64,000 nucleotides of DNA from Candidatus Enterousia intestinigallinarum (GTDB lineage Bacteria > Pseudomonadota > Alphaproteobacteria > Rs-D84), in NCBI GenBank assembly GCA_018716885.1, contig DVJI01000012.1:175065-239064 (forward strand), written 5' to 3'. How positions within the stretch are numbered: the first letter of the stretch is position 1; every line of letters starts with the position of its first letter. Below the pieces are notes generated by a model. The model was not told where the DNA came from. It was given only the letters and a program-made list of their open reading frames with translations, and ran no database searches. Shown here piece after piece: positions 1,521 through 61,905 of this stretch. The position numbers were made by a program, and so were the translations under genes.

Positions 1521-2408
1521 TTAATAAAAACAATGACTATCAAGTTCAAAAGTTCCTTCGGTAGCATTAATAGTCGCATTGCTTGAAATATAACAACCTG
1601 TTATAGATGTATCTCGTGCTAAACGTTTTATATAACCGTCGCCGTATTTTCCTTGATACAACGGACATTTAATGCAACTGGTTGGGCCAAAACCTGAAGA
1701 AACCGGACCATTATAATATCCTGGATTATCATCACACCGATACTCATAAGAACATTTACCTGCTTCGGTACAGGTTACCACTTTTAACAAGCCAGGTTTC
1801 TTATCAGGATCTACGGGCGTGCCCCCCACGACCCATCCTTCACACTGGCTCGCCCGGGTACATTCTCTCGTGTCCTCACAATAAGCCCCCTCAAACGGTC
1901 CATTTATGCATCCATTTATTTCCACATTTTGCAAAACTTGCTTATAACCCGTTTGGCATACATCACAATATTCTATGGGGCCCACCCAACCAAAGTTGTT
2001 TGTACTTAACCATCTGCGTTCACCACTGACACAACCATTTTCATTAGAAATAGGTTCAGTATATCCCCACTCATCATAGCATATATCAGTAGAACTATCA
2101 TTAGCCACACATTCATAGTATTTTAAATCGCCACAGTTTTGCCCCGGCAAGGTTCCGCTGAGTTTCTTGCTATAACCCAATGTACACTCAGCACATTCCC
2201 GATATGCAATGGTTGGTTTTCCGATGCCCGTACCATAACATCGACGGGCAACATCTGGTTTTTCACCAACATTTTGTACCGCACAATTTGCGGGTTCAAG
2301 TGGGCCAATTGTATGAATAGATTCTGGGCACGAGTTCCCATATTGATTTGTTTCCAAACACATCAAAGCATTTGCATTGCTTGCCATACCTAAATACAAA
2401 CACAAACC
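1521..2408 (-). CDS. Cys-rich secreted protein body lacking its own RBS/ATG; completed in frame by inversion of cassette 2409-2494
   Basis: Many Cys. Begins with a signal-peptide h/c region (GLCLYLGMASNANA). C-terminal GCY...EGTFELDSHCFY motif. Confidence 0.8.
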   Translation of the reverse strand, partial: GLCLYLGMASNANALMCLETNQYGNSCPESIHTIGPLEPANCAVQNVGEKPDVARRCYGTGIGKPTIAYRECAECTLGYSKKLSGTLPGQNCGDLKYYECVANDSSTDICYDEWGYTEPISNENGCVSGERRWLSTNNFGWVGPIEYCDVCQTGYKQVLQNVEINGCINGPFEGAYCEDTRECTRASQCEGWVVGGTPVDPDKKPGLLKVVTCTEAGKCSYEYRCDDNPGYYNGPVSSGFGPTSCIKCPLYQGKYGDGYIKRLARDTSITGCYISSNATINATEGTFELDSHCFY

Positions 2409-4980: not shown

Positions 4981-5586
4981 TTATTCAGAATAATAACACT
5001 TTTGGGTTAAATCATATATTCCTGTTTCATCGTATATCCCAGTTCCTGGTTCCATATAACAGCCCGTTATATCATCCAAATTGGCTTCACTGCTGGTTGT
5101 TCTATACTGCGACCCCCACAGGTCAATAAAACTGGGGCACTCTTTGCAGCCGATATCCGTACCACCAATGGAAGGCTCATAATAAGTTACATACCATCCT
5201 GATGCACAGGCCCGATCGTCCCCTATTTGAGAAACGGTGCAATATTTTTCCAAATATCCACCAGTAAAAACAAAATGCTTTTTTCTGACCACGCCATCCA
5301 AATATGGATCTGCTTCCCAGTCATATATTGGGAAATTATATTCGCACATGCACACAGAACAACCGGTTTCTTCTGCTTCATAACTGGCTCGGTATACAAA
5401 GGTGTCTTCAGTTGCGGACACAATACAACTAGTATCACTGGAACTGGTGCACATATCCAAGTTATTATATAAAACATTCCATTCTTTATAATCACTGCCA
5501 CAGTTGCAAGTATACTCGGTTGGTTCGTTTGGTGCAGCATTAGACATATTGCATATAAATATTAATGCAATTGCAGAACATAATTG
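4981..5586 (-). CDS. Cys-rich secreted protein body lacking its own RBS/start; completed by inversion of cassette 5587-5672
   Basis: Frame extends 5' of ATG 5547 as QLCSAIALIFICN (h-region) but meets an in-frame TAA inside the cassette. C-terminal GCY..PG...DETGIY....CYY. Confidence 0.8.
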   Translation of the reverse strand, partial: QLCSAIALIFICNMSNAAPNEPTEYTCNCGSDYKEWNVLYNNLDMCTSSSDTSCIVSATEDTFVYRASYEAEETGCSVCMCEYNFPIYDWEADPYLDGVVRKKHFVFTGGYLEKYCTVSQIGDDRACASGWYVTYYEPSIGGTDIGCKECPSFIDLWGSQYRTTSSEANLDDITGCYMEPGTGIYDETGIYDLTQKCYYSE

Positions 5587-5672
5587 ACCGATTTATTTCG
5601 GCAAAAATGGAGGATAAAAAAATGCAGAAATCTGGGATTTTTACAAAAATAAAAACACCGATTTTAATCGGT
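5587..5672 (+). promoter_or_regulatory. putative invertible 86-bp RBS/start/signal-peptide cassette, copy 2 (OFF)
   Basis: GGAGG 5609-5613, ATG 5622; inverted ends ACCGATT 5587-5593 / AATCGGT 5666-5672. Confidence 0.8.
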
Positions 5673-5700
5673 GGTTTATTTTCGGCATTTATTTGATTCT

Positions 5701-5730
5701 ATTTTACCCCAATTTCCACGCCCACGTCAA
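5701..5730 (-). promoter_or_regulatory. promoter TTGACG-18-TAAAAT pointing into cassette 2
   Basis: Same hexamers and GAAATTGGGG spacer end as at 60567-60596. Confidence 0.6.
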
Positions 5731-5814
5731 TTATATTTTTAACATTTTACCCCACCTCACCATGGACAACTTTTTCATCTTGCTTTGCTCAGACACACGC
5801 GGTAACATAATTTT

Positions 5815-6059
5815 GTCGACGGGTGTTCCGTCGATGGGGTGTGGAAACCTCTGCCTAAGCGTCTGAATATAAAAACGCAATGCGCCAAAATGTGCGCACG
5901 TTTTGCAGTATTACGACGAAAAACAAATCTCCTGATTTTCGGGTCAGGAGGGTCGCGAAATACCCAATACGCGGCACAATTCTTAGGATTGTTTCCAACC
6001 TCCTGACCACCAAAGATTTGGTGGTTTTTTGTTTCAACAAAAAATCAGGAGATTGAACT
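5815..6059 (+). ncRNA. c4/CI-like structured leader (antisense-attenuator), copy A
   Basis: Homologous to 14149-14378 and 19764-19960. 5' hairpin, GGAAAC/GTTTCC and CCTAAG/CTTAGG complementary boxes, GGTCAGGAGG/CCTCCTGACC stem, ACCACC/GGTGGT+T terminator; promoter TTGCTT-17-TAACAT at 5780-5808. Confidence 0.65.
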
Positions 6060-13333: not shown

Positions 13334-13714
13334 TTATGGCAATGGTCTAATAACTTGTCCGCCACCTATAACGGGCAAACCACCAGAAACGCCGTCCGTC
13401 ATTGGACACGCCTGGGTAAAAACGTATGAACCGGTCCGGTCGCTGTATGTAGTATTTGCCGGTGCATACATTATGCACGCCCCCGCGGGTGATGATACCA
13501 GACAACTGTCCGCAGTACCGGCAGATACATACCCAGTGGGACACGCACTGTCCGCAATTGTCATATATTCTTCTTCTATTGCTATATAGCCATCTGGGCA
13601 AGATGTAGACGGCGAGCTAACCAATTGTACAGGTGGTTTAACCTGTATCGCCATTGCCGGCATTGTCGCGTACAATGCAAATAAAATCAATATTCGTTTC
13701 ATCGCAATCACCAT
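13334..13714 (-). CDS. small Cys-rich secreted protein (paralog of 19050-19328); start may be 13702
   Basis: PSTSCP.GY....EEYM.IADS.CP.GY.SAGTADSCLVSSPAG.CIMYAP shared with the paralog. Confidence 0.8.
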   Translation of the reverse strand: MVIAMKRILILFALYATMPAMAIQVKPPVQLVSSPSTSCPDGYIAIEEEYMTIADSACPTGYVSAGTADSCLVSSPAGACIMYAPANTTYSDRTGSYVFTQACPMTDGVSGGLPVIGGGQVIRPLP

Positions 13715-14148: not shown

Positions 14149-14378
14149 TTTCAAACTCCTGTTTTTTCTGTATGAAAAAACCACCAGTTTTACTTGGTGG
14201 TCAGGAGGTTCGAAACAATTACCAGAATTGTGTCACTTATTTGATATTCGTGACCCTCCTGACCAAAAAATCAGGAGTTTGTTTTTCGTCTTAATAAAAA
14301 TGGCACAATACGCGCCAATATTTATTCCGACGCTGGTACAGAGGTTTCGACACCCCATTGACGGAACACCCGTCAACA
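14149..14378 (-). ncRNA. c4/CI-like structured leader, copy B
   Basis: Homologous to 5815-6059; boxes CGAAAC/GTTTCG and TACCAG/CTGGTA; promoter TTGCAA-17-TAATAT at 14412-14384. Confidence 0.65.
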
Positions 14379-14421
14379 TAATAATATTACCGCGTTAGTT
14401 TTTTTATTGCAAGGAATAATA

Positions 14422-14893
14422 GTTACGAGTCACGAGTAACAAGCAACGAGTCACGAGTAACAAATTTGTCATTGCGAGGGAGTGTAACGACCGTGGCAAT
14501 CCAGGTAATTGATGTCTGCGCATACGCGCAGTACTTTTTTTTATTTACTGGATTGCTTCGCGTTGCTCGCAATGACACAGGATTATAGTATTACAAAAAA
14601 ATACGAGTATCGAGTAACGAATAACGAGTCACGAGTAAACCACCCCGCCGACTTGTCACCCCGTGGCGCGTGGTGCTGGTTGCCCACTTTCCCTTGTCAT
14701 TCCGGGGCTTGACCCCGGAATCTAGGTAATAAAAAAGTACTGCGGGCATAGCCCGCAGACATATATAACCTGGATCCCGTGGTCAAGCCACGGGATGACA
14801 CAGAGTTTTGAGTTTTTTTATAAAAAATACGAGCAACGAATAACGAGTAACAAGTCACGAGTTACGAGTAACTAGTATCGAGCACCGAGTAAC
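14422..14893. repeat. cluster of two REP/RPE-like palindromes (14468-14576, 14696-14799) separated by degenerate 7-mer arrays (ACGAGTM)n
   Basis: GTCATTGCGAG...GGCAATCCAG/CTGGATTGC...CTCGCAATGAC and GTCATTCCGGGGCTTGACCCCGGAATC/GATCCCGTGGTCAAGCCACGGGATGAC; heptamer runs at about 14422-14463, 14602-14638 and 14829-14893. Confidence 0.8.
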
Positions 14894-19049: not shown

Positions 19050-19328
19050 TTATTCCAACGGACAGGCGGATGTAAATTCATATGAACCTGTGTCATCTGT
19101 ATATGTTGTATTCGTTGGCGCATACATAATGCACGAACCGGCGGGTGATGACACCAGACAACTGTCCGCCGTACCGGCGGATGTATATCCAGCGGGACAC
19201 GTGCTGTCCGCGATTTCCATATATTCTTCCACCACGGTAACATAACCCGTGGGACACGAAGTGGACGGCGCGGCGGCAAATGCGCCAATCGGCGCAATCG
19301 CCATAATTAAAATAAATATTCGTTTCAT
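19050..19328 (-). CDS. small Cys-rich secreted protein (paralog of 13334-13714)
   Basis: Signal peptide; near-identical core to 13334-13714. Confidence 0.8.
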   Translation of the reverse strand: MKRIFILIMAIAPIGAFAAAPSTSCPTGYVTVVEEYMEIADSTCPAGYTSAGTADSCLVSSPAGSCIMYAPTNTTYTDDTGSYEFTSACPLE

Positions 19329-36160: not shown

Positions 36161-37996
36161 ATGAAAATTGTACGTACATTTTTAATATTTTGCGCTATCG
36201 CAGTGACCGCATCAAATGCGGGCGCGTTTCAAATTTCGCCACAAACGTCTAATAAAAACTGTACTGACACGGAATACAGAAGACAGCACCCAGAAAAATG
36301 CCCATCTTTTTTGTACACTGCGGCACCGATATTATCGGGTGCAACCGTACTGGGTGGCGCGATCGCACTAATTGGCTTGTCTGGGGCTGCGGGTGGAAGC
36401 GACAGTGCCACGGAATATTACCAGCCCACCCTGGCCGCACCGGACTATGTAGGTGGCGACGTAAGTTCATTACAACTGGCCGCGGTAACATCGGCACCAG
36501 AATACGAAAAAAATCTGACACAGTATAACGACATACGTCTGGCGTATTCTATTGCACGCGGATACACAGGACGCGGCACAATAATTGCCGTTTTGGACGC
36601 TGGTCTGGATTCTTGGCACGGGGCGGCCGTCACGGCCGTGGCCGGTGGTGCCATTGCACCAAACGCAATCGTAAATTCATATAAAATCGCCAATAATCTG
36701 GATTTCGTTTCATACCGTGAAATTGGTGATGCAATCGGACACGCGACAGACGCAAACGTATATAACGCCAGTTGGTCTGTGCCAATGCGTGCAAATGATT
36801 TGCGGTCGCGCAATCAACTGTCAAATCTGACCGATGCAAATTTTGTGAACCAAATGTCCGCGGCAGCCGCGCGCGACGCAATATTTGTATGGGCCGCTGG
36901 CAATGATTCCGACAAACAAAGCAGTGCCCTGTCCGCGATACCAGTTGTAATGCCTGAAATGCGCGGTCACTTTATAAACGTTGTTGCCTGGGACAGCGCA
37001 ACGGGCGCCCTGGCCGAATACAGCAACGCGTGCGGTATAACCGCCAACTGGTGTATAACAGCCCCGGGCAGCAACATAGACACCGGCGCATCAATCGCCA
37101 ACGGCACCAGTTTTGCCACCCCGATAGTATCTGCCGCCGTTGCCGTAATACGCGAAGCATTTCCCTATATGACCGCGCCCCAGATAACAAATTTATTGTT
37201 TGAAACAGCGCGCGATTTGGGCACGCCCGGCGTTGACGCCGTCTACGGTCACGGAATGCTGGATTTGGAACGCGCAACGCGCCCGGTTGGCGCGCCCCTT
37301 GTACCCATAGATGGCGGCGCAATGCAACCATTACAAACGGCGCGTGTATCTGGTGCGATTGCACATAACATAATGGACGCCAACCCGAAATTTGCATACT
37401 TTGACAAATACGGGCGTGCATTTGACGCAAAATTATCAGATGTTATTGAAATAAAAAATCCGGGACTGGGATTTCAGCGTCTGCGCGCAACAGAAGACAT
37501 AAAAATTGCAGAAATTGGAAATTTTGAAATGGGACTGGCCAACAGCGATATCGCCATCGGCGACGGATTTTTGCAAATACGCGACAATAATCTGTTTGGA
37601 TTTGTCGGCACACAAAATGATTTTGAAATCGGGCAATTAAAATTGACCCAGCGCGCCCGCCTGGCGTTCGGGGCGCCACGCGCATCACAAAATTCGATGA
37701 TAAGCAACCTGTCGAACATATATACCGCGTCAATCGATGTATCTGCCAATATCGGCGACTGGTCATTCGGCATATCTGTTCCGGACACGATAATTGGTGG
37801 CACAATGAATTTACACCTGCCAACGGGGCGCGCGGACAACGGCGCCATAATATATAATGATTACGCAGTTGATATGCGTACGCGTCCATCAATCGAATAT
37901 TCTGTATCATATCGAGCTTTTACCGCCAGTTTTGTTGACAATCCATACGGCACGGATGAATTTTTCATTATGACCCGCGGCCGTATAAAGTTCTAG
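36161..37996 (+). CDS. S8 (subtilisin-like) secreted serine peptidase
   Basis: Triad motifs VLDAG, HG, GTSFATP; AAGN oxyanion hole; YGHG.LD. Confidence 0.92.
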   Translation: MKIVRTFLIFCAIAVTASNAGAFQISPQTSNKNCTDTEYRRQHPEKCPSFLYTAAPILSGATVLGGAIALIGLSGAAGGSDSATEYYQPTLAAPDYVGGDVSSLQLAAVTSAPEYEKNLTQYNDIRLAYSIARGYTGRGTIIAVLDAGLDSWHGAAVTAVAGGAIAPNAIVNSYKIANNLDFVSYREIGDAIGHATDANVYNASWSVPMRANDLRSRNQLSNLTDANFVNQMSAAAARDAIFVWAAGNDSDKQSSALSAIPVVMPEMRGHFINVVAWDSATGALAEYSNACGITANWCITAPGSNIDTGASIANGTSFATPIVSAAVAVIREAFPYMTAPQITNLLFETARDLGTPGVDAVYGHGMLDLERATRPVGAPLVPIDGGAMQPLQTARVSGAIAHNIMDANPKFAYFDKYGRAFDAKLSDVIEIKNPGLGFQRLRATEDIKIAEIGNFEMGLANSDIAIGDGFLQIRDNNLFGFVGTQNDFEIGQLKLTQRARLAFGAPRASQNSMISNLSNIYTASIDVSANIGDWSFGISVPDTIIGGTMNLHLPTGRADNGAIIYNDYAVDMRTRPSIEYSVSYRAFTASFVDNPYGTDEFFIMTRGRIKF

Positions 37997-38628
37997 GCAA
38001 CTTCATTATTCGCCACCTGTTCTGGTATATCGGACACCAAACCGCGTTCTTCAATAAACTTTGACAAAGTATCCCGATGCACCCGCAAACGCCGTGCAAT
38101 TTCCTTTTTTTTACTGCCGTCGGCTAATTTTTGAACAATATATTTCTCACGTCCTTCTAACTTGCAGGCATTGCGACTGCCCTGGGGGCGGCCGACACGT
38201 TTACCTTCGGCACGAACACGGGCCAATGCTTCCTTGGTTCGTTGCGAAATCAAATTGCGTTCAATTTCCGCAGACAACCCGAACGCAAAGGCCAAAACTT
38301 TACTGGTTATATCAGACCCCAACCGATAATTATCCTTTATCGTCCATATTCGCGCACCAATGTTCATACAATGATGCAAAATACTCATTATTTGTAATAA
38401 ATTACGCCCAAGCCGTGACAGCTCGGACGCAATTATTAAATCATCTTTTTGAATTCTTTTTATCAACCGTCCTAATTTTCTTTTATTCAGGTCTTTGGTC
38501 GCGGAAATAGTTTCTTCTATCCAACAATCGATTACCAAGTCCTGCTTTTCACAAAACTTTTGGATTTCAAATCGCTGATTTTCCGTTGTTTGGTGGTCAG
38601 TCGACACACGTATATAGCCATATATCAC
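37993..38628 (-). CDS. serine DNA invertase, Mpi (multiple promoter invertase) family
   Basis: YGYIRVST catalytic motif, Q..ENQRFEI, SELSRLGRNL, WTIKDNYRLG.DI.SKVLAFAFGLSAEIERNLISQRTKEALAR (recognised as Mpi-like), C-terminal HTH; GTG start with AAGGAG. Confidence 0.9.
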   Translation of the reverse strand: MIYGYIRVSTDHQTTENQRFEIQKFCEKQDLVIDCWIEETISATKDLNKRKLGRLIKRIQKDDLIIASELSRLGRNLLQIMSILHHCMNIGARIWTIKDNYRLGSDITSKVLAFAFGLSAEIERNLISQRTKEALARVRAEGKRVGRPQGSRNACKLEGREKYIVQKLADGSKKKEIARRLRVHRDTLSKFIEERGLVSDIPEQVANNEVA

Positions 38629-38806
38629 GATACACTCCTTTGGCTGTTTGGCAGATACACGTATCTCTCCCCCGCGAATGCGGCACCCTGTTGCTTATGA
38701 CAAAAATCCTAAAGTTAAAAATCGCAGTCGCAAAAATTTAATTATTTATCTTGTAATATTGACCAGCCCCGTCTATGATTGCTGTATCAACAGGAAGGGG
38801 TATTTT

Positions 38807-41800
38807 ATGCAACGCAAAATGCAATCCAAAACAATCCGAAAAAATGCTGCTGCACGCACATCGCGTCCACGTGTTACGAAACAAAACACGCATCGTATAT
38901 GGCGAACCGTCGCCTGGATTGCGGGTGCGATTGCACTGATTGGAATAATTGCGCTCATTTGGTGGCGCGCCAGTACATCGGAAACAGACGTCACAAAACT
39001 GACGGCGACGGCAACCGCGCCGGCGGTTCAAACGTTCACCGATGACAACACTATGTTTTTTGCAACCCAAAACAGCATCCCAGACGTGAATAATGACCGT
39101 GAACTGACCCCGCCAGCAGACGCAATGATTTCATACACGCTGGAATCTGGTCCGTATGCACCAGCATTCAAAATGAACCTGGTTGATGCGGATTTGTCGG
39201 ACCAGGTAAAAATTACCCCGTTTATACGTGGCACGTGGCATTTTCGCGGATCTAATAATTTATCATTTGCGCCGGACGGCACCTGGCCAGCGGGAACAAA
39301 GTTCACAGTTCGAATAAATCCGGCCTTGATAAACGACGATGTGCGTGATGCACCAACACGCTTTACTTTCACTACACCGGATATCACAGCCACGGTTGAT
39401 AACTTTAACCTGTATCCTGCCCTGGACGACGCCAAATCGGTTATTGGTGTTGCGGTAATATCGTTTGATTATGAAATTGATACGACTGATTTCGCGGATA
39501 AAGTATCAATGAAACTGGACGACAAGAAACTGGACTTTACTGTAAAGTTCGACCGCTTTCGCCGTACTGCGTTTATAATATCAGCACCAGTAAAAATAAC
39601 CAACAACGCGCAGATTATGCGGGTAAAACTAAATCGCATACCTGCATTGGACGGCGATTCCAAAACACAAAAATTGACCGCAAATGTAACAGTTGATGCT
39701 GCCGACAATATTTTCAAAATATCATCGCTGGACACGACTGTTGCCGATGACAATGACGGCAACGCACAACAGTTGATATTGCTTGACACCACGACGGCCG
39801 CGCGTGATAACACCGATTGGTCACAATATATCACTGTATATTTATTACCGACTTACCGTGACGACGAAGAACGCACCGCACAGCGTGTGCATATATGGGC
39901 TGACGATGAAATAACAGAAGACGTATTATCAGAATCAAAAAAACTGGATATAAAACAGATGGATTTTGCCACCGCACGCGGTGTTTATCAGTATGCTTTT
40001 TCATACGATGTATCCGACAAGCAAACACGATACATCTATGTTGATGTAAAACCTGGGGCTTTATCTGCAACTGGATTTGAAATGAAAAACGGCGACACAT
40101 CCGTAATGCGTGTTCCATATCCGACCGCATCTGTTCAGATTGCCGGGTCCGGCGCACTGTTGTCATTGGCCGGCGGACGCGAATTGGGAATTGTCGCCCG
40201 TGGCGGTGTCGATACGGCGTACGTGAACCTGTACAAAGTAAAATCCGAAGAAATAAATCACCTGATATCCCAAACATACAATGTGTTTGCATCAAATATG
40301 GAATTTAAGTCCTGGGCATTTGGCGTATATGATATGTCTGTGGTGTTTCAAAAGCGAATTTCTTTTGTAAATCCGTCTATGAAATCAGCTAATTATGCAT
40401 CTATTGACCTGGGCGATTATCTGGACAGAACATACGGTGACAATACCGGCATATTTATAATCCAGACCGGCACATCAGAAAATGCCGCTGAATATAACGA
40501 CAAACGTTTAATACTGCTGACTGATTTAGGAATTATACGCAAAGTAAATATGGATAATTCATCCGTGGTATTTGTGTCAAACTTATCAACTGGCACACCG
40601 GCGGCGGATGTGGAAATTTCTGTTCTGGGACGCAACGGCAATAATGTTTGGGCCGGTCGCACTGATGCCAACGGGCGCGCGGAAATTCCGGCACTGCCGT
40701 GGTCAGAATATCGTAACGCGCGCGAACCCGTCGCAGTTGTTGCACGACGTGGCGATGATATTGCGTTTATACCATACAATGCATATAACCAGCACGTAGA
40801 ATATTCAAAATTTGATGTTGACGGCGTGTACGCATCAGCATCAACACCACTGAACGCATTTATGTTTTCAGACCGCGGAATTTACCGTCCGGGTGAACAG
40901 TTAGTCCTGGGCGGAATTGTAAAAAACAAATCTTTCAAATCACTTGCTGGGATTCCAGTACGTCTGCAAATGCGTGACGCACGCGGTCGCATTACATTAG
41001 AAAAAACATTTTCACTGACCGCGGACGGCTTGTTCGATATAGAATATAAAATTCCAGATGATGCGACACTGGGAACCTGGAACACATATTTATACTCGCT
41101 GACCGCAAATGACAAATTGGCTGATATGCTAGGTACCGTAACTTTCGACGTTCAGGAATTTGTCCCTGACACAATGAAAATAACGGCCAATATTGCGGGC
41201 GCATCAGAAAACGGCGGTTGGGTTGCACCGTCAAACCTGCGGGCAACTGTATCATTGCGCAATTTGTTCGGTACACCGGCAACAAATCGACGCATTGCCG
41301 CACGCGCAACATTGACGCCGGTCGAATATTCTTTTGATAATTTTGCCGGATATAAATTTACGCCTAACTTTATTTCTGATACTGGGCTGTCAACAAATAC
41401 GGCACGCCGTATCCAGACATATTCTGTTGAACTGCCTGATATGCGAACGGACGACAACGGCGCCGCAACACTGGACATACAATTCGACAGAATTATACCA
41501 TCGGGTACATACACACTGGCACTGAACGTACGCGGATTCGAATCGAATTCTGGCACCAGTGTCCAAACAAATATCACCACCCGCGTATCCGATGCAAAAT
41601 ATCTGGTTGGTTGGCGTGCTGATGGCGACACATCATATATAAACAAAAACACCGTACGCAAAATCAAACTGATTGCTGTTGACCACACCGCAACACCGAT
41701 TGCAGCGGACGGGTTAAAATTGCGCATACTGCGCCGCGAAAACCAAACCACACTGGTCAAAGATTATAATAACTACTATAAATACCAGACCGTATCCCGC

Positions 41801-44614
41801 GACAAAACCGTTTCGCAAACCGCACTGGATATACCCGCGGATGGCGCAACAGTAACACTGGACACAAAAACTGGCGGAACATATTTTATGCAGGTTTTGG
41901 ACGCCGCGGATAAAATTCTGGCCAGTGCTGAATATTATGTTGCTGGTGGCGAAAACGTATCAATGACTTCAGATACGCCCGCCGATTTACAAATAAAACT
42001 GGACGCATCAGAATATGCCCCTGGCGATGATATCGCGGTCAGCATAACCGCCCCGTACACAGGTGCCGGATTGATAACAATAGAACGCGACAAAGTGTAC
42101 GCTTACAAATGGTTTAACACAAAATCCACATCTTCGGTTCAGCATATAACCGTTCCCGCCGGATTTGAAGGCACTGGGTACGTCAACGTATCGTTTGTTC
42201 GTGATATAAACAGTCGTGACATATTCACCACGCCATATGCATACGCCGTCGCGCCATTTTCGGCCGACACATCCGCACGAAAAATAGATATAAAGTTGAA
42301 TACGCCGGATGTCGTACGCGACAATAAATTGACCGTGCAATACACAACAAACCGTGACGTACGCATAATGCTGTTTGCCGTCAACACCGGAATCTTACAG
42401 GTTGCAAATTACCAGATTCCAAACCCGCTGGCACACTTTTTCCAGAAATCAGCATTACAGGTGAACACATATCAAATACTGTCACTGCTGTTGCCGGAAT
42501 ACAAAATTCTGCGCGAATATGCCAAAACCGGCGGTGGCGACTATGGTGGCGACGGTGCCGTAAACCTGATTCAAACAAATCCGTTTGGACGTCGCACCCA
42601 GGCACCCGTTGCGTTCTATTCAAAAATTTTGAACGCACGCGCAAACACAACGGACAGCGTAACGTTCGATATTCCCGAATACTTTAACGGCGCGGTTCGT
42701 GTGTTTGCAGTTGCCGCAAACACCAGCGCGGTCGGCGCGGCAGATACTGAAGTATATGTACAATCACCGATTGTAATATCAACGTCCGCCCCACTGTTTG
42801 CGGCTCCAAACGATACGTTTGAAATAAACAGCGTCGTAACAAATATGACCGAAAACAGCGGCGCCAACGCAAAAATATCACTGGCGGCGACGACATCTGG
42901 TGGGCTGAATTTAACTGGTGCCACAACTATGTCTGATACAGTTGCAGAAAATGCGGAAAAATTATTTACTTTCCCTGTTCGCGCAACAGACACATTGGGC
43001 AACGCAGAAATCAAATTGAATGCCACATTAAACACGGATGACAAAACATTGGCCACACGTGAAAATACAACAACATTGTCCGTGCGTCCGATAACGACAT
43101 ATACAACAAATATAACGTCTGGTATTGTGGATTCACGCGATACAACCGTGTCCGATTTTAATATTGATATGTATCCGGAATTTGCGACACGACACCTGTA
43201 CGTATCGCACGGTGCGGGCGCAATGGCAATGCCGTTGTTTGAATATCTGGCACATTACGATTATCCCTGTACTGAACAACTGGTATCGCGCGCAATTCCA
43301 TATGCGGTAATGCCGGATAATAAAATACTGGGGACAACACGTTCAGAATCCGCCAAAAAAATCGCGGACACCGTGAACACCCTGCGTAATCGCCAGAACG
43401 ATGACGGGTCATTTGCATTGTGGTCTGGTGGCGCAACAACACGTGATAACCGATTCGATTCGGATACGGCGTATCTGACCGCATATGTAACGCAATTCCT
43501 GATCATTGCGCGTGACGCTGGATTTACTGTTCCAACACAAATGCTGTCACGGGCGGTGGATTTTCTGCGCACATTTGCGGGTGGCAATATAATTGACGCC
43601 GAATATGCCCGTGCCGCCGCATACGCAATATATGTAATTTCCGAAAATGGATATGTTACGACCAGTTACATAGACGCCCTGACCCAGTACGCAGATGAAA
43701 ACATCAAAAACTGGCGCGAAACATTGACTGGGGCATATATCGCTGCGGCGTATAAAATCCTGAAACAGGATGATTTGGCACGCGATTTGATATCGGAATA
43801 CGGCACATCGCGCAACACACGTTTTGAATACAGTGCAATGTTTGACAATAATGTTGCAAACGACGCAATGTATTATTACCTGACCAACAAATTATTTGCG
43901 TCACAGAATCCAACCGAATCCGATGTCTTGCGTGAATATGTCAAATCTGGGACATTTGACGCGTACACATCCGCCGTGGTAATTATGGCACTGGCCGGCG
44001 ATTCGACCGCCGCGGTCAAAACAGGTGACATCACAGTTACAACTAATTCACAAATTGTACCAGTTGTAACAGACAGCGCGGACGGCGTTACGGCCAAAAT
44101 CCCCGCCGATGCAACCAAAATCAATATCACCTGTGCCGAATGCAACGATGCAACACGTATGTATTATACCCTGGTACAACAAGGTTATCCGACGGAATCG
44201 CGCGCCGCGACAAACGGTTTGGATATAACACGCGAATATTACAACGCTGACGGCGACAGAATAACACAAGCAAATATCGGCGACATTGTAACAGTGCGCA
44301 TATCGGCCCGTACACGCGGCGGCACTGATATTGCGGAAAACATTGCGATTACGGACCTGTTACCCGGCGGATTTATTGCAAACGCGGATTCTGTCACTGG
44401 CACCCCGGAATATTTCGAGGTTCGCGAAGACCGCGTCCTGATATATGCCGACCTGACACGCGAAGTCACAGAATTCACCTATACAGTTCAGGTTGGCGCG
44501 TCCGGTACATTTGCAATTCCAGCAATTTCCGCGGAATCTATGTATAATCCACAGATACGCGCCACCGGACACACAGGAACATTTACGGTATTAAATGAAA
44601 CATCTGAAAGATAG
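38807..44614 (+). CDS. bacterial alpha-2-macroglobulin
   Basis: SDRGIYRPGE, QEFVPD, thioester CTEQ, QN.DGSF.LW, DLLPGG, REDRV; followed by pbpC. Confidence 0.95.
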   Translation: MQRKMQSKTIRKNAAARTSRPRVTKQNTHRIWRTVAWIAGAIALIGIIALIWWRASTSETDVTKLTATATAPAVQTFTDDNTMFFATQNSIPDVNNDRELTPPADAMISYTLESGPYAPAFKMNLVDADLSDQVKITPFIRGTWHFRGSNNLSFAPDGTWPAGTKFTVRINPALINDDVRDAPTRFTFTTPDITATVDNFNLYPALDDAKSVIGVAVISFDYEIDTTDFADKVSMKLDDKKLDFTVKFDRFRRTAFIISAPVKITNNAQIMRVKLNRIPALDGDSKTQKLTANVTVDAADNIFKISSLDTTVADDNDGNAQQLILLDTTTAARDNTDWSQYITVYLLPTYRDDEERTAQRVHIWADDEITEDVLSESKKLDIKQMDFATARGVYQYAFSYDVSDKQTRYIYVDVKPGALSATGFEMKNGDTSVMRVPYPTASVQIAGSGALLSLAGGRELGIVARGGVDTAYVNLYKVKSEEINHLISQTYNVFASNMEFKSWAFGVYDMSVVFQKRISFVNPSMKSANYASIDLGDYLDRTYGDNTGIFIIQTGTSENAAEYNDKRLILLTDLGIIRKVNMDNSSVVFVSNLSTGTPAADVEISVLGRNGNNVWAGRTDANGRAEIPALPWSEYRNAREPVAVVARRGDDIAFIPYNAYNQHVEYSKFDVDGVYASASTPLNAFMFSDRGIYRPGEQLVLGGIVKNKSFKSLAGIPVRLQMRDARGRITLEKTFSLTADGLFDIEYKIPDDATLGTWNTYLYSLTANDKLADMLGTVTFDVQEFVPDTMKITANIAGASENGGWVAPSNLRATVSLRNLFGTPATNRRIAARATLTPVEYSFDNFAGYKFTPNFISDTGLSTNTARRIQTYSVELPDMRTDDNGAATLDIQFDRIIPSGTYTLALNVRGFESNSGTSVQTNITTRVSDAKYLVGWRADGDTSYINKNTVRKIKLIAVDHTATPIAADGLKLRILRRENQTTLVKDYNNYYKYQTVSRDKTVSQTALDIPADGATVTLDTKTGGTYFMQVLDAADKILASAEYYVAGGENVSMTSDTPADLQIKLDASEYAPGDDIAVSITAPYTGAGLITIERDKVYAYKWFNTKSTSSVQHITVPAGFEGTGYVNVSFVRDINSRDIFTTPYAYAVAPFSADTSARKIDIKLNTPDVVRDNKLTVQYTTNRDVRIMLFAVNTGILQVANYQIPNPLAHFFQKSALQVNTYQILSLLLPEYKILREYAKTGGGDYGGDGAVNLIQTNPFGRRTQAPVAFYSKILNARANTTDSVTFDIPEYFNGAVRVFAVAANTSAVGAADTEVYVQSPIVISTSAPLFAAPNDTFEINSVVTNMTENSGANAKISLAATTSGGLNLTGATTMSDTVAENAEKLFTFPVRATDTLGNAEIKLNATLNTDDKTLATRENTTTLSVRPITTYTTNITSGIVDSRDTTVSDFNIDMYPEFATRHLYVSHGAGAMAMPLFEYLAHYDYPCTEQLVSRAIPYAVMPDNKILGTTRSESAKKIADTVNTLRNRQNDDGSFALWSGGATTRDNRFDSDTAYLTAYVTQFLIIARDAGFTVPTQMLSRAVDFLRTFAGGNIIDAEYARAAAYAIYVISENGYVTTSYIDALTQYADENIKNWRETLTGAYIAAAYKILKQDDLARDLISEYGTSRNTRFEYSAMFDNNVANDAMYYYLTNKLFASQNPTESDVLREYVKSGTFDAYTSAVVIMALAGDSTAAVKTGDITVTTNSQIVPVVTDSADGVTAKIPADATKINITCAECNDATRMYYTLVQQGYPTESRAATNGLDITREYYNADGDRITQANIGDIVTVRISARTRGGTDIAENIAITDLLPGGFIANADSVTGTPEYFEVREDRVLIYADLTREVTEFTYTVQVGASGTFAIPAISAESMYNPQIRATGHTGTFTVLNETSER

Positions 44615-47006
44615 TTTGCACGGTGCACGCAAACGTGTGGCGACGCATATGCGTCGCCACAGGATTTTGTATTGCCTGGTATTCGCGTTACTGGTTATAT
44701 ACGCAATTATAAAAATATTTTTCACCCCGCCGCTGCTATCAGATACTCACTTTGGCCGCGCATATTTTGACAGAAACGGCAACCTGATGCGTATAACATT
44801 GTCCGCCGATGACAAATACAGATTGTTCACCCCCCTATCCGATATCAGCGAATATGTCCAACGTGCGACAATATTGTACGAGGATAAATATTTCAAATTT
44901 CATCCCGGTGTCAATCCAGTGGCACTGGTACGCGCCGCAAAAAATTATTTCACATCTGGCGCGCGTCCGGTTGGTGCATCAACTATAACAATGCAGGTCG
45001 CACGTATAAAATATGACCTGGACACGCGGAAAATCCCAGGGAAACTGATACAAATTGCCGCGGCTATTTATATAGATTTGTTCTATTCCAAGGACGAAAT
45101 TTTAGAAGCATATCTAAACCTGGCGCCATATGGCGGCAATATTGAAAGCATTGGCGCGGCATCATTGATATATTTTGGCAAACCAGCGCGCGACCTGACC
45201 AAGATAGAGGCGATAACTCTGTCAACAATTCCACAAAATCCGACAAAACGCGGACTGAACACCGATGCGGGACTGGCCAATATAATGAATATGCGTGGTG
45301 ATTTGGTTCGTCGTTGGATAGATATAAATCCCACAGACGCCGGATTGGAAACATTGGCCAATATGCCACTGAACGTACGCACAACACGAGATTTACCGTT
45401 TTATGCGCCGCATTTTATAAATTATAAAATATCACAACGACGCAACTATTGGAACGATTTGGGTGCACGGGATTCTGTTGTAAATACGACACTAGATTTG
45501 AACCTGCAGCGTGCGATGGAACGCACATTGCAAAACCAGATAAATTCGCGCGCCCATCTGGGCATACATAATGCCGCCGCAATATTGGTAAATTATAAGA
45601 CAATGGAAACATTGGCGTATATCGGATCGGCAAATTATTTTGATAAATCTATTTACGGCGAAAACGATGGGGTTCACGCGCGCCGCAGTCCGGGCTCTAC
45701 ACTGAAACCGTTGATTTATGCCACAGCGGTGGATATGGGGTATATTCACGGAATGACGCTGTTAAAGGACGCAAAAATCAACTTTGGCGTGTATGTCCCT
45801 GAAAACGCAGACAGTGAATTTTACGGTCCGGTGTTGGCACGTGATGCCCTGACCCATTCGCGAAATATTCCGGCGATAAATTTATTACGGAAAATCGGAA
45901 CCAGAAATTTTTATAACATACTGGCGGCATCCGGGGTAACAAACCTGAAATCGCCAGAATGGTACGGAATATCCGTCGCCCTGGGCGGAGCCGAAGTTTC
46001 AATGTTCGAACTGGCCGATATTTATGCGACTATGGCAAATCTGGGGATGCGTTACGATATTATAACGAATACAGACACACCGCGTGGCGACGGGAAACAA
46101 ATTCTGACGCCAGAAGCATTTTTTATCACCCTGGATATGTTGGCACGCCAATCGACCCCGACAAAGAACATTCCGTTTGCACGCAAACAAACAGAAACTT
46201 TACGCCACTATTGGAAAACAGGAACATCTTCATCATTTCGCGATGCGTGGACTGCGGGAATATTTGGCGATTTTGTACTGGTTGTATGGGTCGGAAATTT
46301 TGACGGCACACCAAACAATGCATTCAGCGGAGCCAAAGCCGCGGCGCCGATATACTTTTCATTAGCCGAAACGGTTGAAAAATATTACGCCGCGAACGGC
46401 ACACCACTGCATAACAATAACTTTATACGGGATAATTTGAACATATCGGAAATAGAAATGTGCGACGGGGTCGGGGGCCTGGCCGGGAAATATTGTCCTA
46501 AAACCGTGCGCGCGTATTTTATTCCCGGCAAATCGCCGATTGAAACATCGTCCGTCTATCGCGCCGTTCCCATAGACAACGCAACCGGACTGCGCGCGTG
46601 CACATATGACGCCGCAACCACCCATATGGCCGTTTTTGAATTTTGGGATGCTGAATATCTGGATATGTTTCGTCGTGCCGGAATCACACGCAACACCCCG
46701 CCCCCGTTTATGCCGGGATGCGACCTGGACGATATAGTCGAAACACGCGCCGCACCGGTAATCACATCCCCGCTGGATGGAACACGCGCGGTAATAGTAT
46801 CGGATAAAAACCACGAACCCATCGCTTTCCAGGCAGTATCGGATATGGCAACCGCAAAAATATTCTGGTTTTTAGACGATGAGATGATTGGTACTACATT
46901 ATCGGGGCAAACATTTACCCATCACGTTTCAATCGGCACGCACACCGTTCGAATAACAGATGAAATGGGTGGTGGTGCACGTATAAACTTCAGTGTAGTA
47001 AAGTAA
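44595..47006 (+). CDS. pbpC: penicillin-binding protein 1C
   Basis: EDK.F..H.GV, GASTITMQVAR, SPGSTLKP, SRN, KTGT; downstream of A2M. Confidence 0.95.
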   Translation: MKHLKDSLHGARKRVATHMRRHRILYCLVFALLVIYAIIKIFFTPPLLSDTHFGRAYFDRNGNLMRITLSADDKYRLFTPLSDISEYVQRATILYEDKYFKFHPGVNPVALVRAAKNYFTSGARPVGASTITMQVARIKYDLDTRKIPGKLIQIAAAIYIDLFYSKDEILEAYLNLAPYGGNIESIGAASLIYFGKPARDLTKIEAITLSTIPQNPTKRGLNTDAGLANIMNMRGDLVRRWIDINPTDAGLETLANMPLNVRTTRDLPFYAPHFINYKISQRRNYWNDLGARDSVVNTTLDLNLQRAMERTLQNQINSRAHLGIHNAAAILVNYKTMETLAYIGSANYFDKSIYGENDGVHARRSPGSTLKPLIYATAVDMGYIHGMTLLKDAKINFGVYVPENADSEFYGPVLARDALTHSRNIPAINLLRKIGTRNFYNILAASGVTNLKSPEWYGISVALGGAEVSMFELADIYATMANLGMRYDIITNTDTPRGDGKQILTPEAFFITLDMLARQSTPTKNIPFARKQTETLRHYWKTGTSSSFRDAWTAGIFGDFVLVVWVGNFDGTPNNAFSGAKAAAPIYFSLAETVEKYYAANGTPLHNNNFIRDNLNISEIEMCDGVGGLAGKYCPKTVRAYFIPGKSPIETSSVYRAVPIDNATGLRACTYDAATTHMAVFEFWDAEYLDMFRRAGITRNTPPPFMPGCDLDDIVETRAAPVITSPLDGTRAVIVSDKNHEPIAFQAVSDMATAKIFWFLDDEMIGTTLSGQTFTHHVSIGTHTVRITDEMGGGARINFSVVK

Positions 47007-59829: not shown

Positions 59830-60510
59830 CTATTCCTCATAATGGCAATTACCATTTACAATCTGAAATTTTCCATTGCTGTCACCAGAATATGTATTTA
59901 CTGGTATATAGCAAGCCCCAATATTCAATGGACATAAATTTGGATCTGTCATACCTGGTATCATCATCATAATTCCACCTTCTGGTTGAGAATACCTTTT
60001 ATAATTCGGGCATTCTGGACAAGTGTATTCTGTTATCATTCCTGTCAATCCGGGGGCCATATAAGTATTTGTTACAGGATAATGCATTACATTGCAGCAG
60101 ACACTTACACCATCTGAACAAGTTGCATTTTCTGGACATTCAGCACACCGCATAGCCGACCCGCCACCGACACTGGTTCTATAGTACCCATCGGGATTAC
60201 AGCGATATACACACGTTCCATCTTCGGCAGCTGAATCACATTGCGTTTGTAATCCATTACCAATGTCTTTCCAGGATGGTCCAAAATATCCCTCGCAAGA
60301 TTGCCCTTTGCACGCAGTAATAATAACGCTGCCGCCACCGCAATACGCATCACACTGGCTAGACGATGGCGCACAACACACATCCTGGCCAATTTGTACT
60401 GTACCGCAGACCACCCACCCAATACCAGGACAGTTATTCAGGGATGTCGTCGCCATTGCACCAGATGTAATCATTATACCAGCAAATAAAATAAACCATT
60501 TCATAACCAT
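59830..60510 (-). CDS. Cys-rich secreted protein
   Basis: RBS GGAAAGGA, signal peptide, C-terminal ACYIP.N...DSNGKF....NCHY. Confidence 0.85.
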   Translation of the reverse strand: MVMKWFILFAGIMITSGAMATTSLNNCPGIGWVVCGTVQIGQDVCCAPSSSQCDAYCGGGSVIITACKGQSCEGYFGPSWKDIGNGLQTQCDSAAEDGTCVYRCNPDGYYRTSVGGGSAMRCAECPENATCSDGVSVCCNVMHYPVTNTYMAPGLTGMITEYTCPECPNYKRYSQPEGGIMMMIPGMTDPNLCPLNIGACYIPVNTYSGDSNGKFQIVNGNCHYEE

Positions 60511-60566
60511 ATTCCTTTCCCTTTGCGCCGAAAACAAACGGTCGATAAGGAACGTCAAAAATGGTG

Positions 60567-60596
60567 TTGACGCAGACGCAGAAATTGGGGTAAAAT
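60567..60596 (+). promoter_or_regulatory. promoter TTGACG-18-TAAAAT pointing into cassette 3
   Basis: Conserved with 5701-5730. Confidence 0.6.
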
Positions 60597-60624
60597 GAAA
60601 TTAAACAAATGCCGAAAATAAACC

Positions 60625-60710
60625 ACCGATAAAAATCGGTGTTTTTATTTTTGTAAAAATCCCTGATTTCTGCATTTTTTTACTCCCCATTTTTGCCGAA
60701 AAAAATCGGT
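60625..60710 (-). promoter_or_regulatory. putative invertible 86-bp RBS/start/signal-peptide cassette, copy 3 (OFF)
   Basis: Minus-strand GGGGAG + ATG (60675) encoding MQKSGIFTKIKTPIFIG; ends ACCGAT 60625-60630 / ATCGGT 60705-60710. Confidence 0.8.
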
Positions 60711-61595
60711 CAGTTTTGTACGGCATTTATTTCGGGATTATTGATTACATCAACCAGTATTGCGACCCCCGGTGTTACAGATGCTGGCCAGTATAGTAAT
60801 ACCTGCGAACAGCAAACTTGCGATGTTATTACCCATCCACAACAAGATACTTCGGGTACCCTACCCGCAAGTATCGTCGAATGTGCAACCGGGACAGATC
60901 TTTGCTATTCATCCGGTTATATGGGGAATTTAAGTGGCCACAGAAAAACATCTTGTACCAGTTGTCCATCTGGCTATGAGTTAAAAGAAGTATCTGGCGT
61001 ATCAACAAAGCAACGTGATTGTCGCGTAACATATAATATATGCGTTGCCGAACCAGAAGATCCATTGGAAAACTGTCCATCAAATTGCAAATATGCAACC
61101 TGGACCACCGACACCAGCCAGGTCGGTCGTCAAAAACGCTGCAATACAACAAATGGCAAGTGTGAATACAGATGCATTCCGAATTTTTATGATGCGTCCG
61201 CACTTACTGGTGGAACATATTGCCGCCCGTGTCCAGATAATGTGCTGGCCGAAGCTTGTTCAGGATATGATGTAGAATACGGTACATTATGCTGTGAACG
61301 TGGGTATTATATGCAGACCGAAGAAAAATCTACATCATCTGGCGGCATTATAATAGGTACAAGATATTATGACGTTACTTGCCCGCGTTGTCCGTCGTTG
61401 GGCGGAGTGTACGGAACGACACCGATAAATACGTGTGTAAGCTCTGTTACTGCCTGTTATATACCGGCAAACACGTCGATTCGTGACACAGTCGGCACAT
61501 ATCAGTTCACCAGCAACTGTAGATATACCACAACCGGAACAAGCACAGGTACCATAACACCAGTTCAACCAGGTACAGTTGTCGGAACAAATTAG
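60711..61595 (+). CDS. Cys-rich secreted protein body; completed by inversion of cassette 60625-60710 (ORF-track TTG start at 60693 has no RBS)
   Basis: Begins QFCTAFISGLLITSTSIA (h/c region); C-terminal ACYIPAN...DTVGTY....CRY. Confidence 0.8.
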   Translation, partial: QFCTAFISGLLITSTSIATPGVTDAGQYSNTCEQQTCDVITHPQQDTSGTLPASIVECATGTDLCYSSGYMGNLSGHRKTSCTSCPSGYELKEVSGVSTKQRDCRVTYNICVAEPEDPLENCPSNCKYATWTTDTSQVGRQKRCNTTNGKCEYRCIPNFYDASALTGGTYCRPCPDNVLAEACSGYDVEYGTLCCERGYYMQTEEKSTSSGGIIIGTRYYDVTCPRCPSLGGVYGTTPINTCVSSVTACYIPANTSIRDTVGTYQFTSNCRYTTTGTSTGTITPVQPGTVVGTN

Positions 61596-61664: not shown

Positions 61665-61825
61665 CCACAAAAAAAACACCCCGATATTGCGGGGTGTTTT
61701 ATTTCTGGTGACAAATCACCCACAAAATTTTCAATTTTGCGGGGCCTGATTACTGGTCGGCCTCTTTCTCGTCCGACCTGGGCCACAAAAACACCCCGAC
61801 GTTGCGGGGTGTTTTATTTCTGGTG
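61665..61825. repeat. direct repeat of tRNA 3' tip + terminator (61665-61710 and 61783-61825)
   Basis: CCAC-A(n)-CACCCCGA..TTGCGGGGTGTTTTATTTCTGGTG occurs twice. Confidence 0.8.
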
Positions 61826-61905
61826 GCCCTGGTCGGACTCGAACCGACACTCCTTGCAGAACTTGATTTTGAGTCAAGCGCGTCTACCAATTCCGCCACG
61901 GGGCC
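61821..61905 (-). tRNA. tRNA-Leu(CAA)
   Basis: GGCCCCGTGGCGGAATTGGTAGACGC, CTTGA-CT-CAA-AA-TCAAG, GGTTCGAGTCC, CCA end. Confidence 0.95.

Follow-up and report, generated by a model that had tools for sequence, protein, structure and literature searches.

A family of ~86-bp, probably invertible modules that carry a translation start beside start-less surface-protein genes in Candidatus Enterousia

Introduction

In Bacteroides a single small, trans-acting serine invertase, Mpi, acts on many dispersed, short invertible promoters at surface loci and generates combinatorial ON/OFF states, according to the part of the report that was available (PMC10403206). At cwpV of C. difficile, the accessible sections of the source place the promoter upstream of the invertible region and the recombinase gene elsewhere, with the OFF orientation creating an intrinsic terminator in the leader transcript (PMC2784873). 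Excerpts on the Mycoplasma pulmonis vsa and Ureaplasma mba/UU172 systems describe inversion within coding sequence, which joins a 5' part, comprising the ribosome-binding site (RBS) and N-terminal coding sequence, to silent 3' bodies (PMC2268961; PMC3047005), and those on partial-intergenic and intragenic invertons describe one repeat inside a gene and the other outside, with alteration of the coding sequence (10.1101/2023.03.11.532203; PMC9881135). Here we analyse an 86-bp element at 60625-60710 of a 64,000-nucleotide stretch of Candidatus Enterousia intestinigallinarum DNA (hereafter the window; GenBank assembly GCA_018716885.1, contig DVJI01000012.1, positions 175,065 to 239,064). It is the third copy in the window of a cassette with an antisense leader and probably a member of a genus-wide family of ~86-bp invertible modules ('mini-invertons') that switch start-less genes ON and OFF; phase variation by a new variant type of switch is the function that we consider most likely.

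As far as the accessible accounts go, the locus is like the Bacteroides Mpi system in its candidate recombinase, which falls in the same NCBIfam family, in its short regions upstream of surface-molecule genes and in its gut bacterial host. It is unlike that system, in which a promoter inverts, since the leader-bearing module (L-module) carries an RBS, a start and 16 codons and has one site inside coding sequence; the host, moreover, is an unrelated genus with genomes of ~0.9 Mb. Invertible regions of the Bacteroides Mpi system are about twice as long as 86 bp. With cwpV, as the accessible sections describe it, the locus shares an outside promoter, a surface-protein gene as target, a distant recombinase gene and, possibly, an OFF-state terminator. 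Whereas those sections report no part of the open reading frame (ORF) in the cwpV invertible region (PMC2784873), the L-module includes the start of translation together with a piece of the ORF. Module variants that lack an ATG, and thus have an invertible region with no ORF part, are the closer cwpV analogue. RecV, on the enzymatic side of this comparison, is a tyrosine recombinase.

The vsa and mba/UU172 systems, in the portions of the sources at hand, use one promoter-bearing expression site with hundreds of coding bases, large inversions and tyrosine recombinases, whereas here each gene has its own 86-bp cassette, the flip would be local, the promoter lies outside and the candidate enzyme is a serine invertase. 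The partial-intergenic and gene-altering classes, again as partly available, are mostly shufflon-like, are longer than intergenic invertons, and swap downstream gene parts or add stops. In the literature that we searched, some of it accessible in part, no description of a compact inverton comprising RBS, start and leader was found, and the supplementary tables of the surveys might list such cases.

Results

Copy 3 is an 86-bp module between inverted pseudo-palindromic sites

Measured from core dinucleotide to core dinucleotide, the window contains three L-modules of 86 bp each, as a reading made from the sequence alone had claimed for copy 3. Copy 1 (2409-2494) and copy 2 (5587-5672) have the leader on the plus strand, and copy 3, which runs from core AC at 60625-60626 to core GT at 60709-60710, has it on the minus strand; all three are in the OFF orientation as assembled. 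A repeat search of the window paired 2399-2524 with 5577-5702 at 92% identity, and the same repeats matched 60551-60728 and 60599-60719 in inverted orientation at 85-88%, all pairs spanning 121-178 nt. Six positions separate copy 3 from copy 2. One, module position 8, is an A>T change of the inner half-site; three, at 24, 26 and 27, turn GGAGGA of the Shine-Dalgarno (SD) sequence into GGGGAG; the change at position 46 (TCT>TCA) is synonymous for Ser, and that at position 79 (TTA>TTT) replaces Leu by Phe. From copy 1, copy 3 differs at those six and at position 4, in exact agreement with the differences listed earlier.

The extended imperfect inverted repeat that had been noticed at the flanks proved to be a pair of 28-bp pseudo-palindromes of 12-4-12 design: site s3 (60612-60639, core CACC) and site s1 (60696-60723, core GGTC), the outer half of the latter being the start of the h-region of the gene A signal peptide. 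In general the sites have 12-bp half-sites and a 4-bp core, mostly CACC or GACC at one end against GGTG or GGTC at the other, and at locus L038 of a related species only the core departs from perfect palindromy. A pattern search placed the two site centres at a distance of exactly 84 bp, with AC on one side and the complementary GT on the other, in all nine L-type modules of the genome and in all four of a second, promoter-bearing type (P-modules). Inverted recombinase sites flanking a segment, as the definition of an inverton asks, are hence present at 13 modules of the genome. The feature is real, non-random and well organised.

Besides an SD and an ATG, an L-module contains 16 codons for the positively charged n-region of a secretion signal. 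In copy 3 the leader ORF, as assembled, runs on the minus strand from 60675 down to 60601 (ATG, 23 codons and a stop) behind the SD GGGGAG at 60683-60688, and its first 17 codons, to GGT, constitute the transferable leader. The body of gene A (60711-61595, plus strand) has no SD or conserved start of its own; it opens with an h-region and a cleavage-like site and continues as a Cys-rich protein (24 Cys, 8.1%). Inverting copy 3 in silico yields a 311-aa frame into ORF 60693-61595, so that the in-frame fusion foreseen from the sequence alone is reproduced. The corresponding frames are 312 aa for copy 1, with target ORF 1521-2408 (minus strand), and 218 aa for copy 2, with target ORF 4981-5586 (minus strand); further modules of this genome gave 160, 210 and 324 aa. 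The assembled orientation offers frames of no more than 22-44 aa at these six modules. C13_74k gave 188 aa.

Two other assignments at copy 3 were considered and discarded. The sole in-frame candidate for a gene A start in the OFF orientation is a TTG at 60693, inside the module; no SD precedes it, and copies 1 and 2 have a TAA in the corresponding frame. The 24-aa leader ORF was rejected as an independent gene on the grounds that its tail past the arm is unconserved and variable in length, leader ORFs across the modules having 20-84 codons as assembled. As to what the switched genes encode, gene A and the other target proteins gave no Pfam match even at E<=5, and structure comparison (Atlas) gave no usable match for the target proteins, with a TM score <0.35, and to Cys-rich repeat proteins only.

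In-silico inversion yields in-frame genes across the genus

The window forms part of a 919-kb genome (13 contigs, 98% complete) of a genus with ~0.9-Mb genomes; the lineage is an uncultured one of the gut, and the public runs in which the stretch occurs are bird and chicken gut metagenomes. The host has an outer membrane, as LptC, OmpA and a Pom-like porin were found. A covariance model built on 27 aligned modules matched in 62 of 151 genomes of the genus, the source genome included, with up to 28 scored matches per genome; the source genome itself has nine strong L-type modules. From 63 cmsearch matches at 56 loci, seven duplicate places and nine secondary matches below 25 bits were left out. 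The remaining 47 were pooled with the nine modules of the source genome, and removal of four without a start left 52 distinct start-bearing modules drawn from ~30 species or genomes.

Six of the 52 modules are in the ON state as assembled, joined already to a long gene whose product has a hydrophobic h-region (L038, L056, L059, L090, L049 and C10:245,0xx of this genome). On in-silico flipping of the 46 non-fused modules, 41 produced an in-frame ORF of 95-519 aa; as a control, a junction displaced by one base did so in 3/46 and one displaced by two bases in 2/46 (binomial P for the 41 of 5e-15 against a chance expectation of 1/3). The fused products have features of a Sec-type signal peptide, mean hydropathy of residues 18-32 being positive in 39/41, with cleavage sites judged by eye. 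That start-less target ORFs of 95-519 codons stay open implies expression in one state or another. Every gene comes with a separate cassette and a separate flanking promoter, and no single shared expression site of the vsa type was seen. At locus L041 (genome G029), again judged by eye, the flipped leader joins an N-terminus like that of a cytoplasmic family-2 glycosyltransferase and not that of a secreted Cys-rich protein.

The leader frame is kept, largely on top of constraint at the DNA level

The sequence-only reading had taken the divergence of the copies as a sign of coding constraint on the leader, had held the reverse-strand RBS and peptide to be functional, and had the recombination arm double as signal-peptide code. 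Across the collected copies, the leader frame is free of stops (0/46 unique leaders, as against 43/46 and 21/46 leaders with a stop in the other two sense frames), and indels between the ATG and the core are absent in 26/27 aligned modules. The leader peptide is basic, with a median of 3 for K+R and of 0 for D+E. Ser4 occurs in 42/46 leaders with a varying third base (TCT 19, TCC 12, TCA 10) and is the sole codon with a clear coding signature.

Codon-position entropy (0.62, 0.82 and 0.79) shows no excess at the third position, and the pairwise ratio of nonsynonymous to synonymous substitution (dN/dS) is 0.78 in frame as compared to 0.84 and 1.30 in the other frames; the signal is weak and we do not accept either measure as proof of coding constraint. 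The best-conserved codons (QKSG) overlap a central motif, GCAGAAAT, that is also present in the non-coding P-module and is palindromic in the ATG-less variants. Much of the leader conservation is constraint at the DNA level, exerted by recombinase half-sites, the central motif and A/T runs, with the frame and the basic character kept on top. Coding constraint has support in the absence of stops and of indels, in the basic peptide and in Ser4, and little in entropy and dN/dS. A functional reverse-strand RBS and peptide with a dual-purpose arm is strongly supported by the frame-preserving fusions, the ON modules and the lack of stops, whereas the argument from the divergence pattern that was originally advanced for it is weak.

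A promoter module adjoins the L-module, and the OFF transcript contains a terminator-like motif

Three sites at the copy 3 locus, s4 (60528-60555, core GGTC), s3 and s1, delimit two adjacent 86-bp modules, the L-module on the right and a P-module (60541-60626, plus strand) on the left, to both of which s3 is common; s4, on the far side of the P-module, adjoins the 5' untranslated region of gene B. Between its inverted cores the P-module holds a sigma-70-like promoter, TTGACG-18-TAAAAT (60567-60596, plus strand; 10/12 consensus matches), that reads into the L-module and gene A, and copy 2 also has TTGACG-18-TAAAAT on its constant-arm side. More generally, a promoter-like site aimed into the module was found on the constant-arm side in 32/44 modules and on the gene side in 0/44, and the L-modules thus share with cwpV a promoter that precedes the invertible region and is not part of it.

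The OFF transcript of copy 3 has no RBS or start and contains a terminator-like hairpin followed by a T-run (60624-60651, plus strand; 7-bp stem, 4-nt loop), present only in the transcript of the assembled orientation; on the opposite strand, the T-run corresponds to Lys-rich leader codons. A motif scan detected such a motif in 24/39 OFF transcripts (8/8 in this genome), 12/39 simulated ON transcripts and 0/5 natural ON modules of relatives, a distribution compatible with termination in the OFF state.

The P- and L-modules (60541-60626 and 60625-60710) are homologous in register, with 45/86 positions identical as compared to 21.8 +/- 3.9 (maximum 35) in 2000 shuffles. Both have the 8-base block GCAGAAAT at their exact centre, where it spans codons 2-4 in the L-module and forms promoter spacer in the P-module. 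On the far side of each of the four P-modules of the genome lies a gene for a secreted protein that has an SD and an ATG itself, ~20-38 nt from the core. At copy 3 this is gene B (59830-60510, minus strand), which encodes a divergent Cys-rich secreted protein and would be served by the P-module if flipped. The promoter at copy 3 points to the L-module. The paralogous locus L007 (C10:244700-245500, ~6 kb past the end of the window) is in the opposite state, its leader being fused to a 286-aa gene and its inner half-site degenerate, and there the promoter module is oriented oppositely, towards a gene that has a start of its own. Intact genes facing the promoter-less end suggest that the P-module may flip too.

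In five module variants without an ATG, the centre is perfectly palindromic, with an A-run on one side and a T-run on the other (L031:3246-3336, equivalent to C13:~102894-102984 of the source genome, L092, L100, L051 and L112:1299-1387). The gene beside each of the five, at a distance of 19-33 nt, already possesses an SD, an ATG and a signal peptide, and the variants may be pure leader or terminator switches.

A wider scheme, which we put forward tentatively as possible rather than probable, is that of a modular toolkit of homologous 84-86-bp mini-invertons, in which promoter, start/leader and ATG-less modules would be strung between divergent surface-protein genes as multi-layer switches served by one Mpi-like invertase. 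Under this scheme the length of eight helical turns and the central motif would reflect a new compact synapse that needs a central bending factor, and the same bases would act as recombinase site, terminator, RBS and signal-peptide code.

An Mpi-family serine invertase is the likely recombinase

A serine recombinase of 211 aa that belongs to the Mpi family of master DNA invertases is encoded in the window, at 37993-38628 on the minus strand. It matches PF00239 at 8e-32, has a helix-turn-helix motif, and scores 307.9 bits against NCBIfam NF009949 'master DNA invertase Mpi family' (cut-off 272), residues 1-197 aligning with positions 1-198 of the 203 in the profile. Among solved structures the best relative is the DNA invertase 4m6f (2.5e-15), with whose N-terminal Ser-containing motif residues 2-13 align, as expected of the catalytic motif of a small serine recombinase. 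No other such small serine recombinase was found in the genome at E<=1e-10; the remaining serine recombinases are a protein of 531 aa, on a contig of lower GC, and a 111-aa fragment. An ortholog (E<=1e-90) is present in 37/38 genomes with a strong module match (E<=1e-6) and in 10/112 others, in one draw of 150 genomes. These points make it likely that the Mpi-family invertase flips all the dispersed sites in trans.

Serine recombinases make a 2-bp staggered crossover, which fits a 12-4-12 site with a non-palindromic central dinucleotide, and tyrosine recombinases use an identical overlap of 6-8 bp. A genuine switch could also be flipped by a tyrosine recombinase of the XerC/XerD kind in place of the Mpi-like enzyme. 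The genome does encode two PF00589 proteins, one of which (C13:101149-101649) lies 1.2 kb from a module-like element at C13:102900, and Xer-like recombinases drive comparable surface-gene inversions in mycoplasmas, as reported in the accessible part of the source (PMC2268961). However, the two proteins look like the housekeeping pair, since their best scores are to the XerD and XerC models. The sites, moreover, have an asymmetric centre of just 4 bp, in which identity between partners is often limited to the central ACC (CACC and GACC). This suits a 2-bp serine crossover better than a tyrosine-type overlap, and an Mpi-family gene accompanies the modules in 37/38 genomes. We hence consider a tyrosine recombinase an unlikely agent and retain the Mpi-family invertase as the candidate.

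Both orientations occur among related loci

Both orientations occur among related loci and genomes, with 6 of the 52 modules ON and 46 not, and in one genome (G017) the arms themselves are exchanged. There, the constant arm that follows the OFF modules L048 and L053 on their downstream side reappears, as its reverse complement, upstream in the ON module L038, and exchange at the core predicts exactly such an arrangement. Together with the in-frame fusions, this leads us to infer that inversion takes place in living populations.

Several observations weigh against this interpretation. At the copy 3 locus we compared public sequence as the assembled contigs of four of 23 runs, from four studies, with depth differences between contigs set aside. 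Contigs end at the switch in 4/4 runs, with left ends at 60568, 60579, 60627 and 60610 and right starts at 60682, 60696, 60671 and 60677, and such breaks are equally expected from a multi-copy repeat; none of the three joints listed for these contigs changes strand. P-modules were not seen in two orientations at one orthologous locus in the close species compared. A loop of 84 bp is very short for recombination, and no accessory factor was identified. Five of the 46 modules give no in-frame fusion (L046, L075, L054, L098 and the decayed copy C10:44k), and two of the 41 fused products (L091 and L041) lack a hydrophobic h-region. The terminator motif is missing from 15/39 OFF transcripts and present in 12/39 simulated ON transcripts, recombinase and modules may occur together through common descent, relatives not being independent, so that their association is supportive only, and the substitution pattern gives weak support for selection on the peptide. 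Finally, core centres vary among species (AC, AA, GA, GT and CC) and are complementary in 48/52 modules, a count that is partly circular because the left core position in other species was set by a rule that rewards complementary centres.

Two further searches came back empty. An exact scan of metagenome contigs with 31 bases of the gene A arm gave 0 matches, in a collection from which near-identical records may be left out. Comparison with five close species brought to light no orthologous locus in the opposite orientation, gene content round the switches turning over too fast; in genome G088, for instance, a different switched gene adjoins polA.

The modules could instead be a static duplicated 5' regulatory region, a divergent leader or small ORF copied along with paralogues and no longer inverting, with the ON and OFF arrangements as old, fixed rearrangements. 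This would agree with the same OFF relation to the gene in the three window copies and in 46/52 modules overall, with the lack of a strand change at the joints listed for the contigs of the four runs, and with the failure to find orthologous loci in opposite orientation. Against it, the start-less ORFs (95-519 codons) are intact and in frame with the leader in 41/46 cases, inverted sites with an exact spacing of 84 bp are kept at 13 modules of the genome, cores differ between species while their ends stay complementary, both states, with arms swapped in the predicted way, coexist in genome G017, and the tail of the as-assembled leader ORF past the arm, in ORFs of 20-84 codons, is unconserved. 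We therefore judge a static origin to be distinctly improbable. Spread of a mobile element of the miniature inverted-repeat transposable element (MITE) type to upstream regions, in the manner of Correia elements and with a chance likeness to a switch, is barely credible: short length, terminal inverted repeats, up to 28 scored copies per genome and promoter- and terminator-like parts would fit it, but it predicts neither start-less genes, an outer arm made of the gene's own signal-peptide codons and 41/46 in-frame fusions, nor co-occurrence with one invertase.

Discussion

Switching by inversion of the modules, the reading that we favour, could operate as follows. A promoter outside the module would transcribe through the L-module. 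In the OFF state the transcript would read the module antisense and so lack both RBS and start; in this genome it would also run into a hairpin and U-run. Inversion at the AC/GT centres would then give a transcript with SD, ATG and leader in frame with the gene, and hence a complete pre-protein, the first codons of the start-less gene (h-region and cleavage site) serving as the outer half of one recombination site. At copy 3, a flip of the P-module would redirect transcription to gene B and create a two-layer switch. The Mpi-family invertase would act in trans on all the dispersed sites.

If this is true, the modules represent a distinct phase-variation design, in which a very small cassette supplies translation initiation and the n-region, and not the promoter, to up to dozens of genes per genome. 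Many 'start-less' or truncated ORFs for surface proteins in such metagenome-assembled genomes would then be silent alleles and not pseudogenes or annotation errors, and inverton finders aimed at promoters or long repeats would miss such cassettes. A compact flipping part with an RBS and a start could also serve in recombinase-based circuits, and the 84-bp spacing would raise the question of the minimum loop length for a serine invertase.

Other features of the window and the source genome

At the copy 3 locus, contigs of two runs (X1 and X5) join 60719 back to 60607 on the same strand, like a tandem 113-bp unit, at a depth close to that of the chromosome; this joint is absent from the assembled genome. 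Just 3' of gene A lies tRNA-Leu(CAA) (61821-61905), where contig depth rises several-fold in 4/4 runs. Adjoining the invertase gene, positions 38648-47006 encode a bacterial alpha-2-macroglobulin (1988 aa) and then a PBP1C-type penicillin-binding protein. Further repeat families with 74-82% identity pair 13404-13614 with 19060-19270 and 5768-5869 with 14323-14424, between unannotated small-ORF regions. Outside the window, the 66-kb contig C6 of the source genome, with a GC content of 0.43 as compared to ~0.46, carries the 531-aa large serine recombinase and may be an integrated mobile element.

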